IMG/VR virus record: IMGVR_UViG_3300034127_000005
Span: 1-64,000 of that record
DNA from: a virus
Taxonomy: Duplodnaviria; Caudoviricetes
Reading direction: 5' to 3' (one strand)
DNA: 64,000 nucleotides
Program-made: the position numbers and the translations under genes
Notes under the pieces: generated by a model
What the model was told of the DNA's origin: nothing
Databases searched by the model: none
What the model saw: only the letters and a program-made list of their open reading frames with translations
Shown here: one piece after another, positions 30,658 through 63,774 of the stretch
Layout of the letters: each line of letters starts with the position of its first letter
Position numbering within the stretch: position 1 is the stretch's first letter

Positions 30658-30735
30658 GAATCGCTAGCTCAATTGGTTAGTAGCATCGGACTTTTAATCC
30701 GGCGGTTCCGAGTTCGAGTCTCGGGCGGTTCACCA
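30658..30735 (+). tRNA. tRNA-Lys(TTT)
   Basis: cloverleaf, loop CTTTTAA, CCA. Confidence 0.92.
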
Positions 30736-30741
30736 AATTAT

Positions 30742-30831
30742 AGCGGATTGAGAGAGTGACTTAATCTAACGCTTTGCTAAAGCGTCGGGTCAGAAATGGC
30801 CCCGTAGGTTTGAATCCTACATCCGCTGCCA
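30742..30831 (+). tRNA. tRNA-Ser(GCT)
   Basis: loop TTGCTAA, long variable arm, GCCA. Confidence 0.88.
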
Positions 30832-30836
30832 GATTA

Positions 30837-30928
30837 TCGGGTCGCTCCCGAGAAGAAAACTACACGAGGAATTGAGCCAGCGCGCCTCGATGCATTGTAG
30901 GGGTACAAGTCCCAAGTACGCTGGTCAA
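30837..30928 (+). ncRNA. structured spacer RNA (pseudoknot-capable, T-loop-like hairpin)
   Basis: CTACA/TGTAG, CGAGG/CCTCG, TTGA-CCAGCG/CGCTGG-TCAA, GG-TACAAGT-CC. Confidence 0.4.
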
Positions 30929-30943
30929 GAATTTTAGATTTAT

Positions 30944-31032
30944 GGAGAGTAGCACCGATGGCGGTACACAGTCTTGAAAACTGCGCCACTGGTTAGTAGC
31001 CGGTGAGGGTTCGATTCCTTTACTCTCCGCCA
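30944..31032 (+). tRNA. tRNA-Ser(TGA)
   Basis: loop CTTGAAA, long variable arm, GCCA. Confidence 0.9.
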
Positions 31033-31038
31033 AACAAA

Positions 31039-31114
31039 GCTTCATTGACGCAACGGTAGACGTGTCTGTTTCAAACGCAGAATGTTCGGGGTTCGAATCC
31101 CTGATGAAGCACCA
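31039..31114 (+). tRNA. tRNA-Leu(CAA), short variable loop
   Basis: TCTGT-TTCAAAC-GCAGA, ACCA. Confidence 0.85.
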
Positions 31115-31124
31115 AACAAACAAC

Positions 31125-31201
31125 GCCCTCGTAGCCCAACTGGGAGAGGCAGCGCGCTTAGAACGCGTACAGTGAGAGTTCGAATCTCTCTGAGGGCACC
31201 A
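31125..31201 (+). tRNA. tRNA-Leu(TAG), short variable loop
   Basis: GCGCG-CTTAGAA-CGCGT, ACCA. Confidence 0.88.
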
Positions 31202-31207
31202 AACAAT

Positions 31208-31282
31208 GGACGATTGGCGAATCGGGAACGCGACGGTCTTTGACACCGTTATGAGCTGGCTCGACACCAGCATCGTCTTCCA
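31208..31282 (+). tRNA. tRNA-Gln(TTG)
   Basis: ACGGT-CTTTGAC-ACCGT. Confidence 0.85.
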
Positions 31283-31284
31283 AA

Positions 31285-31403
31285 TTTGAATGACTGGCCT
31301 TGCCTTATAGCCGAAGTGTCTGTTATTGTTGTGGAGATAAAATAGCAGAACGACTACAGGAGGGGCAGTGTCCACTACTCGTAACCTTGAGTCATTCAAA
31401 CCA
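31285..31403 (+). ncRNA. non-tRNA structured RNA with an 11-bp terminal stem and 3' CCA
   Basis: TTTGAATGACT/AGTCATTCAAA-CCA; internal TCTGTTATT/AATAGCAGA hairpin. Confidence 0.55.
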
Positions 31404-31460
31404 AACAACCTGAAGCTTCAAGCGCCTTGGGATGTAGCATAAGAAACCAACTCTTATGTG

Positions 31461-31489
31461 TTGACGCACAGACGACTGCGTGTTATAAA
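31461..31489 (+). promoter_or_regulatory. internal sigma70 promoter
   Basis: TTGACG-17-TATAAA with extended TGn. Confidence 0.7.
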
Positions 31490-31506
31490 TGTCGTCCTCG
31501 AATAAA

Positions 31507-31584
31507 GGGTCGGTAATGTTTAATTGGCAAACGGCGGGATTCCAAATCCTTGCATTCTCTGTTCGAATCGGAGTCGGCTCGCCA
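31507..31584 (+). tRNA. tRNA-Trp(CCA)
   Basis: loop TTCCAAA, GCCA. Confidence 0.85.
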
Positions 31585-31589
31585 AGCAA

Positions 31590-31664
31590 GTTGGATTGGT
31601 ATATGGGATTGTGCCTCGGCCTTCTAAGCCGATTAGACTGGTTCGAATCCAGTATCCAACACCA
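31590..31664 (+). tRNA. tRNA-Arg(TCT)
   Basis: TCGGC-CTTCTAA-GCCGA. Confidence 0.88.
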
Positions 31665-31688
31665 AATGAAATAGTTTTCAAAATATGC

Positions 31689-31716
31689 TTGACAAAGTTC
31701 ATTTGTCGTATACAAT
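31689..31716 (+). promoter_or_regulatory. internal sigma70 promoter
   Basis: TTGACA-16-TACAAT. Confidence 0.75.
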
Positions 31717-31736
31717 GGGGACATAAGCAAGACAAT

Positions 31737-31811
31737 AGTGAGTTGGCCGATTGGATTAGGCTCGGGCCTACGAAGCCCGCTAGGTAGGTTCGATCCCTAC
31801 ACCCACTACCA
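31737..31811 (+). tRNA. tRNA-Arg(ACG)
   Basis: CGGGC-CTACGAA-GCCCG. Confidence 0.88.
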
Positions 31812-31817
31812 GATTAT

Positions 31818-31890
31818 GTTGATTGTCGTCTAGAGGATAGGACACCGGCACTGACGCTGGAGAGATGGGTTCGAGTCCCGTTGATCAACA
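31818..31890 (+). pseudogene. tRNA-Glu-like gene with a 6-nt anticodon loop (ACTGAC), no encoded CCA
   Basis: intact acceptor, D and T arms; CCGGC-ACTGAC-GCTGG. Confidence 0.65.
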
Positions 31891-31902
31891 CTTGATTTAA
31901 AT

Positions 31903-31979
31903 GCTCTGCTCGTCTACGAGGTTTAGGATATGAGGTTTTCACCCTCATGAACGGGGTTCGAGTCCCCGGCAGAGTACCA
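31903..31979 (+). tRNA. tRNA-Glu(TTC)
   Basis: TGAGG-TTTTCAC-CCTCA. Confidence 0.9.
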
Positions 31980-31986
31980 AACAAAT

Positions 31987-32066
31987 GACTTATGGTACTG
32001 CATGGTGTGGTTGCTCCCCTGTCACGGGAGATGTTCAGATGGGATCGTTACCCATATAGGTCGCCA
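31987..32066 (+). tRNA. tRNA-Asp(GTC)
   Basis: CTCCC-CTGTCAC-GGGAG; atypical T-loop ATCGTTA. Confidence 0.82.
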
Positions 32067-32104
32067 AACAATCTCTGGTTAGGGATATAAAACTTTAACC
32101 ACAT

Positions 32105-32180
32105 GCCGCTATAGCTCAGATGGTAGAGCGCTTGCCTTGTAAGCAAGATGTCCCGAGTTCGATTCTTGGTGGCGGCACCA
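32105..32180 (+). tRNA. tRNA-Thr(TGT)
   Basis: canonical cloverleaf. Confidence 0.95.
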
Positions 32181-32187
32181 AATTAAA

Positions 32188-32261
32188 TGCCGGATAGTTC
32201 AAAAGTAGAACGCAGAGCTGATAACTCTAAAACGAAGGAGCGTTACCTTCTCTGGCGACCA
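32188..32261 (+). tRNA. tRNA-Ile(GAT)
   Basis: loop CTGATAA; atypical T-loop AGCGTTA. Confidence 0.82.
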
Positions 32262-32280
32262 ATTAGAAACACCAAATAGA

Positions 32281-32361
32281 TGCGAGAGCGCTAAGACGCA
32301 AGGCAAGTGTCAACCGGCTCATAACCGGACGCAAGAGGTTCGATTCCTCCTTTCGCAACCA
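32281..32361 (+). tRNA. tRNA-Met(CAT), possibly initiator-like
   Basis: CCGG-CTCATAA-CCGG; T1-A72 acceptor. Confidence 0.82.
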
Positions 32362-32379
32362 AACATGTGCTCCCCACGT

Positions 32380-32421
32380 GTACAGCCAGATAGAGTGTGC
32401 TGTATAAATATAGTCTCTATC
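32380..32421 (+). ncRNA. H-type pseudoknot in a tRNA spacer
   Basis: GTACAGC/GCTGTAT and GATAGAG/CTCTATC. Confidence 0.5.
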
Positions 32422-32429
32422 AGAATTAT

Positions 32430-32506
32430 AGGAAATGATCTCACCGGGCGTGGGTCGCGGACTGTTAATCCGCAGATGGGAGGTTCGAGTCCTCTATTTC
32501 CTGCCA
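32430..32506 (+). tRNA. tRNA-Asn(GTT)
   Basis: GCGGA-CTGTTAA-TCCGC. Confidence 0.88.
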
Positions 32507-32508
32507 AT

Positions 32509-32583
32509 TTTGGAAACTCGCGACGTGATGCTACGCGGGTATAAAGGAAGTGCAGTACGGGTTCATAGCGAACTTCCTCCAAA
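32509..32583 (+). ncRNA. three-way-junction spacer RNA
   Basis: TTTGGA/TCCAAA closing ACTCGCG/CGCGGGT and GGAAGT/ACTTCC hairpins. Confidence 0.5.
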
Positions 32584-32592
32584 GCAACACAT

Positions 32593-32677
32593 GGTTCATT
32601 GCGTCGAGCGGCGAAGACGACCGGCTGTAACCCGGCACAACGATACATCCTAGGTTCGAGTCCTAGATGAACCACCA
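32593..32677 (+). tRNA. tRNA-Tyr(GTA)
   Basis: CCGG-CTGTAAC-CCGG, long variable arm. Confidence 0.88.
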
Positions 32678-32798
32678 AACAGTAGTGAACATGTGATGCT
32701 AGTTCGTAATGTCAAAAGTCTGCTTGCAGAGCAAAGGCAACTAATGTAAAGGGAAAAGGCGATCCCTGACTCAAAAGAGTTGAAACCTCCAATTTATT

Positions 32799-32873
32799 CT
32801 CGGGGTATCTCAGAGGCAGAGAGCTGGGTTTGGAACCTAGAGGTCGAGATTTCGAAATTCTCCCCCGTGACCA
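32799..32873 (+). tRNA. tRNA-Pro(TGG)
   Basis: CTGGG-TTTGGAA-CCTAG. Confidence 0.88.
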
Positions 32874-32875
32874 AT

Positions 32876-32986
32876 TTTACTGAAAAGGGTACATTAAGTC
32901 TTTAGGACTGAAGTGTTCGTCCCAGCCACGAATGAGGTATTGAGCCTCGCTAGTGGGAGAATGGCAAGTCCTTAACTGGCAGTAGA
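32876..32986 (+). ncRNA. multibranch spacer RNA
   Basis: TTTACTG/CAGTAGA, AGGACT/AGTCCT, TTCGT/ACGAA, GAGG/CCTC; CCCA/TGGG pseudoknot possible. Confidence 0.45.
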
Positions 32987-32997
32987 CGCGATACAAT

Positions 32998-33071
32998 GGG
33001 CTGTAAGAATTTCGATAGTTCGCTACGCTTGCACCGTAGAAGGCGGGGTTTGACTCCCCGACGGTCCACCA
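32998..33071 (+). tRNA. tRNA-Ala(TGC)
   Basis: G3-U70 pair, CTACG-CTTGCAC-CGTAG, ACCA. Confidence 0.85.
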
Positions 33072-33087
33072 AATATAGGAGTGTATA

Positions 33088-33258
33088 ATGAGAATCAAAA
33101 GTGGCCTACGCCAGAACAAGATTGAATATACTCGCAAAAGAAACAAATGTCCTTGCTGCACAAGATTGAACTGTCGAGAAGAACTTCTCCGGCGATTGGA
33201 GTGCAAAGAGGCTGAGCAAGAGTTACAAAGCAATACGCTTGACTGTGAGGCTGTGTAG
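33088..33258 (+). CDS. 56-aa basic Cys-rich protein inside the tRNA array
   Basis: TAGGAG RBS; MRIKSGLRQNKIEYTRKRNKCPCCTRLNC... Confidence 0.6.
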   Translation: MRIKSGLRQNKIEYTRKRNKCPCCTRLNCREELLRRLECKEAEQELQSNTLDCEAV

Positions 33259-33318
33259 TCTGGGACTACCTTCCGGCTGTGACCCGGTTGATGCAGATCG
33301 AAACTGCACCTCACCCCA
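33245..33318 (+). tRNA. tRNA-His(GTG)
   Basis: CCGG-CTGTGAC-CCGG, C73 discriminator. Confidence 0.8.
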
Positions 33319-33324
33319 ATTTAT

Positions 33325-33400
33325 GTCCTTCTTGCCTGAGCGGCTAGGGTGCTGATTGCAAACCAGTAATAGATCGGTTCAACTCCGATAGAAGGCTCCA
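33325..33400 (+). tRNA. tRNA-Cys(GCA)
   Basis: loop TTGCAAA, U73-CCA. Confidence 0.82.
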
Positions 33401-33405
33401 AATTT

Positions 33406-33478
33406 GCAGGTACGCACAAGGTGTGTCGCCGGCCTTCCAAGCCGTGTAGCAAGGGTTCGATTCCCTTTATCTGCTCCA
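33406..33478 (+). tRNA. tRNA-Gly(TCC)
   Basis: CGGC-CTTCCAA-GCCG. Confidence 0.88.
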
Positions 33479-33483
33479 ATTAT

Positions 33484-33557
33484 GCTTCGTTCGTCTAATG
33501 GTAGGGCCGCTGCTTTACACGCAGTAGACGGAAGTTCGATTCTTTCACGAAGCACCA
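33484..33557 (+). tRNA. tRNA-Val(TAC)
   Basis: GCTGC-TTTACAC-GCAGT. Confidence 0.9.
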
Positions 33558-33561
33558 AATT

Positions 33562-33637
33562 GCATTCTAAGCTAACTTGGTAGAAGCGCTGGCTTGAAAC
33601 CCCAGATGACTTGGTTCGATTCCAAGAGATTGCACCA
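33562..33637 (+). tRNA. tRNA-Phe(GAA)
   Basis: loop TTGAAAC, ACCA. Confidence 0.82.
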
Positions 33638-62495: not shown

Positions 62496-62523
62496 TTGAC
62501 AGCAGGTGAAAGCCTGCTACAAT
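62496..62523 (+). promoter_or_regulatory. sigma70 promoter with a palindromic spacer
   Basis: TTGACA-16-TACAAT; AGCAGG-TGAAAG-CCTGCT. Confidence 0.8.
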
Positions 62524-62556: not shown

Positions 62557-63171
62557 GTGACTCAAATTTCTATTACTCGGGCCTTGGCTCAGGTTAAATC
62601 GCTGAACGATCGTATCGCTCGTGGCAGCAACGCAAACTTCATCACTACGCTGACAGGCGGCAAGCACGGTACTGGCGTGAGCGAGCAGGAAGCTGCTGCA
62701 ATCATGGTATCGAACCTGCAATCCGTACAAGGTCTGATCGCACAGCGAACTGCACTGAAGTCGGCTATCGTCAAGAGCAACGCTCTGGCTACCGTTTCGA
62801 TCAACGAAGTTGTTATGACTGTCGCTGAAGCCATCGAGCGTAAGGGTTCCATTCAGTTGGAACAAGTGCTTCTGCAAAACTTGCGACAGCAACTGGCTGC
62901 TGCAACCCAACAAGTTGAACGGACCAACGTCCAAGTAAACCAACGACTGGATCAACTGATTCAGACTACTGTCGGAAAAGACCGCAAGGTTGATGAAGCT
63001 GAAGTAGCTGCCATCCGTGACCCATTCCTGAAGTCCAACGAAGCCAAGCTTCTGGACTCCAACAAGCTTCAAGGTGTGATCGACAAGCTTCAAGCAAGCA
63101 TCGAAGGCTTCCTTCTGGAAGTTGACTACGCTCTGTCGGAAGTGAACGCCACTACTAAAATTACCCTGTAA
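62557..63171 (+). CDS. coiled-coil protein (DIP1984-like, tentative)
   Basis: AAAGGAGG then GTG start; ITRAL..K.L..RI, AI..SNA, MTVAEAIE.K, VD..LSE.NATT.I; highly biased codons. Confidence 0.8.
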   Translation: MTQISITRALAQVKSLNDRIARGSNANFITTLTGGKHGTGVSEQEAAAIMVSNLQSVQGLIAQRTALKSAIVKSNALATVSINEVVMTVAEAIERKGSIQLEQVLLQNLRQQLAAATQQVERTNVQVNQRLDQLIQTTVGKDRKVDEAEVAAIRDPFLKSNEAKLLDSNKLQGVIDKLQASIEGFLLEVDYALSEVNATTKITL

Positions 63172-63179
63172 CAAGGGTA

Positions 63180-63474
63180 TTCTGTAGCGATGAGTTGTCT
63201 AAATTCAGTGGGGCACCAGCCATACGCCCTAAGTATGGCTACCATAATTGGATAATTAAACGACATTCTCAGTCTTTTATACGGGGTTCAAATCCCCGAT
63301 AAGCTTGCATTGACTACGAACAAAGTTTAACTACTAAAGATTATGGCTTAAGGCTCAACAATGAACCTTTTAAATATGCAACAACGAAAGCCGAAAGATC
63401 ATCGAATCTTGGATTATGGTTTCGTGGAGTTCACTGAGCATCCCTAATGACGCCCCAAGCTGTCGTCTACAGAA
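63180..63474 (+). ncRNA. ~295-nt structured RNA with a T-arm and heptamer array
   Basis: TTCTGTAG/CTACAGAA, TGGGGC/GCCCCA end pairing; AGCCATAC/GTATGGCT; CGGGG-TTCAAAT-CCCCG; no credible ORF; followed by a terminator. Confidence 0.7.
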
Positions 63475-63480
63475 GCACTT

Positions 63481-63503
63481 AGCCCGCCATGAGCGGGCTT
63501 TTT
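63481..63503 (+). terminator. intrinsic terminator
   Basis: AGCCCGC-CATGA-GCGGGCT-TTTT. Confidence 0.85.
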
Positions 63504-63530
63504 GCTGCCTAAAATATGTGAATATGGCAC

Positions 63531-63558
63531 TTGACACGCACTGGAAACGGTGTAGAAT
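63531..63558 (+). promoter_or_regulatory. sigma70 promoter
   Basis: TTGACA-16-TAGAAT. Confidence 0.8.
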
Positions 63559-63588
63559 TGCCGAATCAACCAAACACGGAGAAACAAA

Positions 63589-63774
63589 ATGAAGATTCCA
63601 GCAGCCATTCTAGCTTTCGTCATGACCATGCTTTTGTTCTTCCTAATGGGCGCCTTCGTTGGCAACAGCTTCAACATCAGTGATTGGAGTCACGACGGAC
63701 GGTTTATGTGCATGATGTTAGGGTTCGTTATTGGTTGTGTAGCAGCCGGGTTCACTTATCAGGAGGTAAAGTGA
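63589..63774 (+). CDS. two-TM membrane protein
   Basis: GGAGA RBS; hydrophobic. Confidence 0.7.
   Translation: MKIPAAILAFVMTMLLFFLMGAFVGNSFNISDWSHDGRFMCMMLGFVIGCVAAGFTYQEVK

Follow-up and report, generated by a model that had tools for sequence, protein, structure and literature searches.

In the window (the whole 64,000-nt stretch of phage DNA analysed here), the gene for a 204-aa orphan helical protein, phrog_1491 (62557–63171, + strand), is followed by a 335-nt ORF-free gap (63172–63506) that runs from the stop codon of this gene to an intrinsic terminator and contains a tandem array of degenerate heptamers. Transcription is predicted to start from a sigma-70-type promoter at 62496–62523 (+; TTGACA, a 16-nt spacer, TACAAT and a TG extension, an 11/12 match) and to end at the terminator at 63481–63506 (+; a 7-bp GC stem followed by a U run). 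As the promoter ahead of the ORF is strong and no terminator was found between ORF and RNA, the RNA encoded in the gap is likely made as the 3′ part of the mRNA of the protein, the two predicted signals bracketing ORF and RNA as one unit. RNA-library contigs, which cannot prove transcription, ends or levels, cover both the ORF and the RNA of a T5-like homologue (L108). At this locus two runs have no cover beyond about position 1970 and per-contig depth is higher over 1547–1830, neither of which is proof of ends or levels, and one contig stops at 1914 beside adapter sequence, contig ends being no proof of RNA ends.

Inspection by eye reveals a small hairpin at 63162–63179 (+) that holds the TAA stop codon of the phrog_1491 gene in its loop, an arrangement that, again by eye, is kept with different stem letters in the relatives L004 and L015 and in phage Milchi. 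Hairpin-forming palindromes also occupy the spacers of two near-consensus sigma-70 promoters, the one at 62496–62523 (GCAGG-ugaaag-CCUGC) and another at 63531–63558 (CACUG-gaaa-CGGUG), the latter recurring together with its palindrome in L004 and L015. The tRNA array of the window (30658–33637; 19 genes called by ARAGORN, and an additional Rfam tRNA-like match at 32188–32258 that ARAGORN does not call) lies 30 kb from the gene and its RNA.

AlphaFold models the phrog_1491 protein with confidence (pLDDT 86.5) as an elongated bundle of helices, one end of which carries a small sheet. Foldseek returned no PDB entry at E ≤ 0.001, the best VIA-align hits (Z of 8.9, syntaxin-like bundles) are within the noise for helical proteins, and a fold search of BFVD found only uncharacterised phage proteins; there was likewise no usable match for the protein in PDB sequence profiles, Pfam, NCBIfam, PADLOC or the ESM Atlas, and the fold searches gave no known RNA-binding fold. 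The DIP1984 family (NF038048, 70-bit cut-off) does not match the protein of the window, and a Calothrix homologue reaches 13.7 bits (E = 0.05). The protein is near-neutral (pI 6–8). Its invariant residues are concentrated in the N-terminal helix, in the strand region, where the long helix starts and at the end of the C-terminal helix, from which we infer that together they make up a single conserved end of the bundle. The label 'tail fiber protein' carried by some records is a propagated one, the record of phage bastian crediting Yersinia phage phiR201.

A structured RNA downstream of the gene

The array lies inside an RNA of ~295 nt (63180–63474, +) whose 31 pairs fall in four helices, one of them crossing another. 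Homologous sequences were aligned with nhmmer and MAFFT, and the helices were assessed on an 18-sequence alignment (A2), in which they are 97.8% paired, compared with 79.3% in column shuffles and 35–49% when the partners are slid. Compensatory changes are present in 22 of the 31 pairs, and none of 500 shuffles was as good. The RNA at 63180–63474 is real, structured and pseudoknotted, and its compensatory pairs bear out the earlier suggestion, made from the letters of the window, that the array is part of an RNA.

The closing helix P1 joins 63180–63192 to 63461–63474 (+; 13 pairs, 8 compensatory, 99.6% paired) and contains invariant G-U pairs, which identify the + strand as the transcribed one. 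Next to it P2 pairs 63194–63199 (GUUGUC) with 63446–63451 (+; 6 pairs, 4 compensatory, 98% paired). A 5′ pseudoknot at 63210–63239 (+) is formed by GGGGC (63210–14) and GCCCU (63226–30), with a core of 4 covarying pairs, the latter sequence being the loop of a hairpin (63219–25 with 63233–39, +) in which 7/7 pairs are compensatory. In the 3′ pseudoknot, which crosses P2, CUUGG (63408–63412) pairs with CCAAG (63455–63459; +, 5 pairs, 3 compensatory, 100% paired). Between the two knots lies a hairpin resembling a tRNA T arm (63282–63298, +; CGGGG-UUCAAAU-CCCCG), which relatives keep with another stem; in L004 and L015 it reads GCUGG-UUCGAAU/UUCGAAC-CCAGC, so that its stem covaries.

Neither RNAalifold nor a covariation scan found a covarying helix inside the array, which is left unpaired and whose 3′ end abuts the covarying strand of the 3′ pseudoknot. 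A conserved TGACTACG word precedes the 5′ end of the array, and no pairing partner was found for it. In the minimum-energy fold, a local hairpin is possible across units 5–7 of the array in the window. A mid-array hairpin between unit 5 and the pyrimidine-rich junction of units 7 and 8, which had looked plausible in the window and in Milchi, VCM and L115, was rejected as a feature of the family, as unit 5 is no more complementary to the junction than the other units are (72 arrays). A pairing of GGCU (63345–48) with AGCU (63458–61) proposed by the covariation scan was set aside because it overlaps the better-supported pseudoknot and involves a palindromic word, and a small ORF at 63361–63447 (28 aa) was dismissed as a gene since its start codon is not kept in relatives.

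The RNA matches no catalogued family in the searches made here. At the gathering threshold, Rfam 15 finds only the tRNAs of the 30.6–33.6 kb array in the window, and over 63100–63600 at E ≤ 10 the best matches are terminator look-alikes and a 13-bit tRNA match; ARAGORN calls no tRNA or tmRNA in 63172–63506, where RF00005 reaches only 13.3 bits (E = 9.7). The homologous loci give no Rfam match over the RNA. RAGATH-27 (RF03100; an 86-position model with a gathering score of 76.1 bits) has no match at E ≤ 10 anywhere in the 98-kb genome and is absent from the results for 37 homologous loci (E ≤ 1 or E ≤ 0.01). The RNA resembles ROOL and GOLLD in kind, as these too are large RNAs with several structured parts, are frequent in phages, occur in prophages and are often found beside tRNA genes, but no sequence or structure match to them or to other large ornate RNAs was found in the window or the homologous loci, and to our knowledge ROOL, GOLLD and their kin have neither a heptamer array nor an obligatory partner gene. 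We found no description of the array, the RNA or the phrog_1491 module in the literature.

A periodic array of twelve heptamers

A sequence-only reading of the window had described twelve degenerate heptamers at 63321–63406, and the letters there match its quotation exactly, with both 1-nt slips present. In its phase, 12/12 units have A at position 2 and 10/12 have A at position 3, and a pyrimidine occupies position 7 of units 1–11. Autocorrelation, one of the checks it had proposed, gives a lag-7 identity of 0.506 within the 86-nt array (z = 4.68) and of 0.329 over the whole 335-nt gap (z = 3.28), values as high being found in 0/2000 dinucleotide-preserving shuffles in either case. The coincidence of A with A at lag 7 is likewise raised (z = 3.4), and none of the other lags from 2 to 15 exceeds z = 2.4. 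The 7-nt period is thus non-random, and the periodicity of 63321–63406 is real and local. When a weight matrix built from the family was used to scan either strand of the complete IMG/VR virus record (98,292 bp), with a dynamic-programming parse into units, a single array was found, at 63319–63404 (+), with 12 units and a score of 43; the runner-up on either strand scored 18. In this parse the units have the phase n-U-Y-A-A-A-G and all 12 differ from one another. Units 1–7 are in phase and are followed by one extra nucleotide, unit 8, a further extra nucleotide and units 9–12.

The same unit is found throughout the family. Among 33 non-redundant arrays, consecutive AAAG words are spaced by 7 nt 43 times, by 14 nt 30 times and by 8 nt 8 times, where fewer than 0.5 are expected for each. 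A logo of 442 units has any base at position 1, U at position 2 (75%), a pyrimidine at position 3, A at positions 4 (98%), 5 (83%) and 6 (65%) and G at position 7 (66%). Taken over the phage-type and bacterial arrays, conservation is position-specific, with U at 75–89% and the two A residues at 96–98% and 83%, and these are the very positions (7, 2 and 3 in the earlier phase) that had been picked out as fixed from the window.

The number of units and the positions of the slips are fixed as well. Phage-type arrays have 11–12 units in 30/39 cases, and in most of the exceptions a hairpin inserted after about unit 6 splits the array; among 77 distinct bacterial arrays 58 have exactly 12 units. Steps between units in the latter 77 are 7 nt in 743/854 cases, and in the 58 twelve-unit arrays 69 of the 80 slips come after unit 7 or unit 8. 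The array of the window follows this bacterial 12-unit plan, so its two slips, after units 7 and 8, are conserved landmarks and not signs of decay. Where a GC-rich hairpin is inserted mid-array after about unit 6 (L026, L028, L029, L031, L039, L053 and L063), the flanking units stay in register.

Within this plan the units are not interchangeable. In bacterial arrays A at unit position 4 reaches 100% in eleven of the twelve units, and unit 8 stands apart as pyrimidine-rich; units 1, 2, 7 and 9 usually carry AAAG, and units 6, 8 and 10 rarely do. Each of the 12 places in the array has its own conservation profile, which makes the units non-equivalent. The commonest units in bacteria are CUCAAAG, UUUAAAG and UUCAAAG, and some arrays are far more regular than that of the window, with L043 reading CUUAAAG UUCAAAG CUCAAAG UUCAAAG. 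Units vary inside each array, yet hosts from Pseudomonas to Bacillus and cyanobacteria share the phase, the number of units and the A-A core. The period therefore derives neither from coding nor from a slippage microsatellite, as the sequence-only reading had also held. The near-identical units and the variation in number between close relatives that mark such a microsatellite were not seen, the number being 11–12 over very distant hosts.

Distribution of the gene and its RNA

Relatives of phrog_1491 are present in 745 phage records and many metagenomic contigs, the phages including the T5 group, Vibrio Thalassavirus, Bacillus Bastille-like phages, Erwinia jumbo phages, Lactococcus 949 and a Clostridioides phage. 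A conserved counterpart of the gap follows the homologous gene in the Pseudomonas phages Milchi, Astolliot, phiK7A1, Bitten, VCM, ventosus, PE09, KIL1 and SYP, and likewise in Pectobacterium phage Bobbio and in IMG/VR contigs. In the window, the 3′ half of the gap shares 80% DNA identity with Milchi, whereas the ORF shares only 67%. With a Pseudomonas-clade RNA profile, nhmmer finds positions about 140–290 downstream of proteins that are only 33–44% identical, and these positions correspond to the array and the AAAUCC..GG word that follows it. The array is the most widely conserved part of the RNA.

The array was found downstream of the gene, within 560 nt, in 81/87 non-redundant metagenomic and phage loci with enough sequence, compared with 0/87 in the ORF itself and 4/87 on the reverse strand, and within about 600 nt in 77/79 bacterial chromosomal loci, surveyed at one genome per species. 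Comparison across relatives thus shows the array downstream of homologues, and the linkage of gene and RNA is obligatory. The array is seen, for example, in T5-like VEc33, in Bacillus phage BCP01 and in Vibrio phage Noelle, whose unit consensus is UUUAAGU. In the T5 group the whole module is present in 441 records, and the RNA is annotated in none of the 60 records listed.

Bacterial carriers are Bacillales (Brevibacillus, Paenibacillus, the Bacillus pumilus group, Lysinibacillus and Solibacillus), Clostridia and many filamentous cyanobacteria, with the module in nearly every sampled species of Lysinibacillus and of the B. pumilus group. Its neighbours in Bacillales are unrelated genes (a permease, Ig-like proteins, DinB, an IS element, a two-component regulator), so protein and RNA together make up the complete conserved module. 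The array is the signature element of this widespread, undescribed protein–RNA module. A contig of a Candidatus Bathyarchaeia MAG (L123, 59 kb) has a 45%-identical copy with a 12-unit array, for which mis-binning or a virus is a possible explanation.

The surroundings are of a different kind in cyanobacteria, where the module sits inside long tRNA arrays. In cyanobacteria and some other bacteria a genuine tRNA of varying identity lies between gene and array (L138:2207-2280, L175:2195-2267 and L189:2191-2260; also L180, L181, L183, L191, L193 and L194), and it is at this place that the window holds its T-arm-like hairpin. In phages the module often borders tRNA genes. That many loci lie in or beside tRNA arrays, with a tRNA or a tRNA-like arm just 5′ of the array, suggests a link to tRNA biology.

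Possible role of the array

The array most likely serves as the docking track of a protein–RNA particle that has not been described. In the reading that we favour, to which we would assign a probability of roughly 45%, the ~85-nt loop, tied to a pseudoknot at its 3′ end, provides twelve sites of 7 nt each for an oligomer, probably that of the co-transcribed protein. The array would then be the functional centre of a ~295-nt non-coding RNA transcribed from the phrog_1491 promoter to the terminator at 63481–63506, with a pseudoknotted core (P1, P2, the 5′ knot and the 3′ knot) holding out an unpaired loop of twelve units that would run straight into the 3′ knot. Each unit would present a U at position 2, A-A at positions 4–5 and often A-G at positions 6–7, and the twelve words may serve as contact points for twelve subunits or binding surfaces of an oligomer, the most likely partner being the protein encoded immediately upstream. 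Protein and RNA would form a ribonucleoprotein of fixed stoichiometry, as TRAP does, possibly with one unit to one subunit.

The sequence-only reading had likewise likened the fixed bases to the per-subunit binding sites of TRAP. The conservation of these bases, the unit number held at 11–12, the unpaired state of the array, its 3′ end against a covarying pseudoknot strand and the upstream protein as the only other conserved component are all consistent with such sites; the part of the proposal that fares less well is their equivalence, as identical sites would not predict units with profiles of their own. This non-equivalence argues for a fixed three-dimensional path, perhaps of 7+1+4 units, over twelve identical sites. 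Further points weigh against a twelve-site docking track: the candidate partner is near-neutral and lacks any known RNA-binding fold, AAAG is rare in units 6 and 10 and unit 8 is rich in pyrimidines, and the minimum-energy fold allows units 5–7 of the window a local hairpin. As for docking of the neighbouring protein, the ligand could instead be a host factor.

Characterised systems offer partial parallels for the docking track. On the Bacillus trp leader, a 5′ leader that acts by attenuation, the TRAP ring binds 9–11 (G/U)AG triplets separated by spacers of 2–3 nt (a period of 5–6); the RNA wraps the protein ring, and there are as many words as subunits (11 trp-leader triplets). Like this leader, the array is a run of roughly 11–12 short conserved words that recur at a fixed period where the RNA is unpaired, but the period here is 7, the word is U-Y-A-A-A-G, the words lie in a loop of a knotted RNA 3′ of the gene, and the helical candidate partner is unrelated to TRAP (MtrB) and has no Pfam or NCBIfam family. 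HutP recognises UAG followed by four spacer bases on the hut mRNA, with one site per subunit of the oligomer, two sets of three sites for a hexamer, and causes antitermination. Its sites have a period of exactly 7 nt, as here, but the G of U-Y-A-A-A-G comes two bases later than that of UAG, and a Pfam scan found no HutP domain in the phrog_1491 protein. The operator of T4 gene 32 likewise has a pseudoknot beside an unstructured A/U-rich run of repeats. It contains UUAAA-like words that are bound cooperatively, with a site size of 7 nt, by the protein made from the same mRNA; this operator lies in the 5′ leader and overlaps the ribosome site, has far fewer repeats and lacks a closing helix, and gp32 is an OB-fold single-strand-binding protein.

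If the ligand is a host factor, the array might act as a multivalent decoy or sponge, for example for a tRNA-loop-recognising enzyme or nuclease, an A-rich-specific endoribonuclease, Hfq or S1, and we consider this rather unlikely. U-Y-A-A-A looks like the U-turn core found in T loops (U-C-R-A) and in anticodon loops, the common units CUCAAAG, UUUAAAG and UUCAAAG resemble the T-loop word UUCAAAU at 63287–63293, the tRNA surroundings and the true tRNA or T-arm-like hairpin just 5′ of the array fit a tRNA-directed target, and sponge RNAs with many short sites do exist (CsrB, CrcZ). A sponge, however, needs neither a fixed set of 12 units nor fixed slips nor a knotted scaffold, and it would leave the constant attachment of one orphan protein gene unexplained. 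The factor would moreover have to be universal, since the hosts are Gram-negatives, Firmicutes and cyanobacteria, and stems, which loop-recognising enzymes require, are missing from the units. A sponge of the CsrB/RsmZ type in particular would carry many GGA words in loops, but the RNA has just two of them (63250s and 63411–13), neither inside the array. The constant gene–RNA pair could also be an addiction module akin to type III toxin–antitoxin systems, in which the repeat RNA neutralises many copies of the protein and thereby stabilises mobile DNA such as phage genomes and tRNA arrays. Like ToxI, which makes a closed assembly with its protein, the array is a tandem-repeat RNA genetically coupled to one protein in phages and bacteria; the module is an autonomous two-part one, scattered over phages and chromosomes and sometimes beside IS elements, and several ClyA-family pore-former chains are among the weak Foldseek results. 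This proposal nevertheless strikes us as improbable. The ClyA-family results are non-significant (E > 0.1), the protein shows no ToxN, AbiQ or CptN-like fold, with no PADLOC or Pfam match to the ToxN/AbiQ type and only weak helical-bundle hits in fold searches, and the near-universal presence in sampled Lysinibacillus and the B. pumilus group looks vertical rather than addictive. ToxI repeats, which are cut by the toxin, an endoribonuclease, are about 34–36 nt long and lie upstream of the toxin gene, whereas the units here are 7 nt long and lie downstream.

Two further explanations were weighed. The array could be a length-calibrated, unstructured A-rich spacer between two folded domains, its period a by-product of 7-nt duplication; the predicted lack of pairing is in line with this, as are the apparent unit replacements in units 2–5 between close relatives (the window and L004). 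A mere spacer would hardly retain U-N-A-A or keep specific bases at 83–100% in phase over very large distances while their neighbours drift, nor would it fix unit number and slip sites, and we think it a doubtful account of the array. The repeats could finally act at the DNA level, as iterons in replication, partition or packaging, or they could serve as discontinuous guides by pairing with some nucleic-acid target. Short tandem repeats beside a small protein gene do resemble centromere and iteron loci, but RNA helices that show compensatory changes, and G-U pairs valid on one strand only, enclose the array, which is always on the coding strand behind the gene. The variable bases, which the sequence-only reading had thought might carry guide-like information, are unconserved between relatives (A2), and matches and complements of 10–13-mers of the array within the phage genome are no more frequent than chance. 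This claim was thus not upheld, and a role as iterons or guides seems to us very improbable.

Returning to the docking track, a bolder version would have the twelve-unit loop thread around or along a phrog_1491 assembly of twelve (or 7+1+4) subunits, giving an RNA-scaffolded ring or rod of an undescribed kind that is common to large tRNA-rich phages (the T5 group, Bastille-like phages, Otagovirus and jumbo phages), cyanobacterial tRNA arrays and Bacillales chromosomes and that acts on tRNA supply or in defence against tRNA-targeting immunity. We offer this as speculation and think it rather unlikely. If a docking track is present, an unannotated ribonucleoprotein would be carried by the T5 group, which has served as a model for 70 years, by more than 700 sequenced phages and by whole bacterial genera. 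Its RNA has a loop of 12 × 7 nt on a double-pseudoknot scaffold, an architecture without a match among catalogued RNA families. The fixed unit number yields a sharp, testable prediction of stoichiometry, and the link to tRNA arrays would point to unexplored tRNA biology or phage–host conflict. As the checked records label the protein 'tail fiber protein' or 'hypothetical protein' and leave the RNA unannotated, annotation pipelines should be corrected.

Individual loci show other elements next to the module. In Paenibacillus xylaniclasticus a skipping-rope RNA (RF02924; 54 bits, above its gathering score) follows directly (L115:2519-2647). In some T5-group phages, among them Salmonella phage bastian (L195:1315-1827), falkor and 1586, a homing-endonuclease gene is inserted directly 3′ of the RNA, with ORF and RNA intact. 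Two contigs of jumbo-phage size, Ga0209728_1000004 (349 kb, L045/L046) and JGI24024J18818_10000001 (332 kb, L056/L057), each have two copies of the gene, and each copy is followed by an array of its own.
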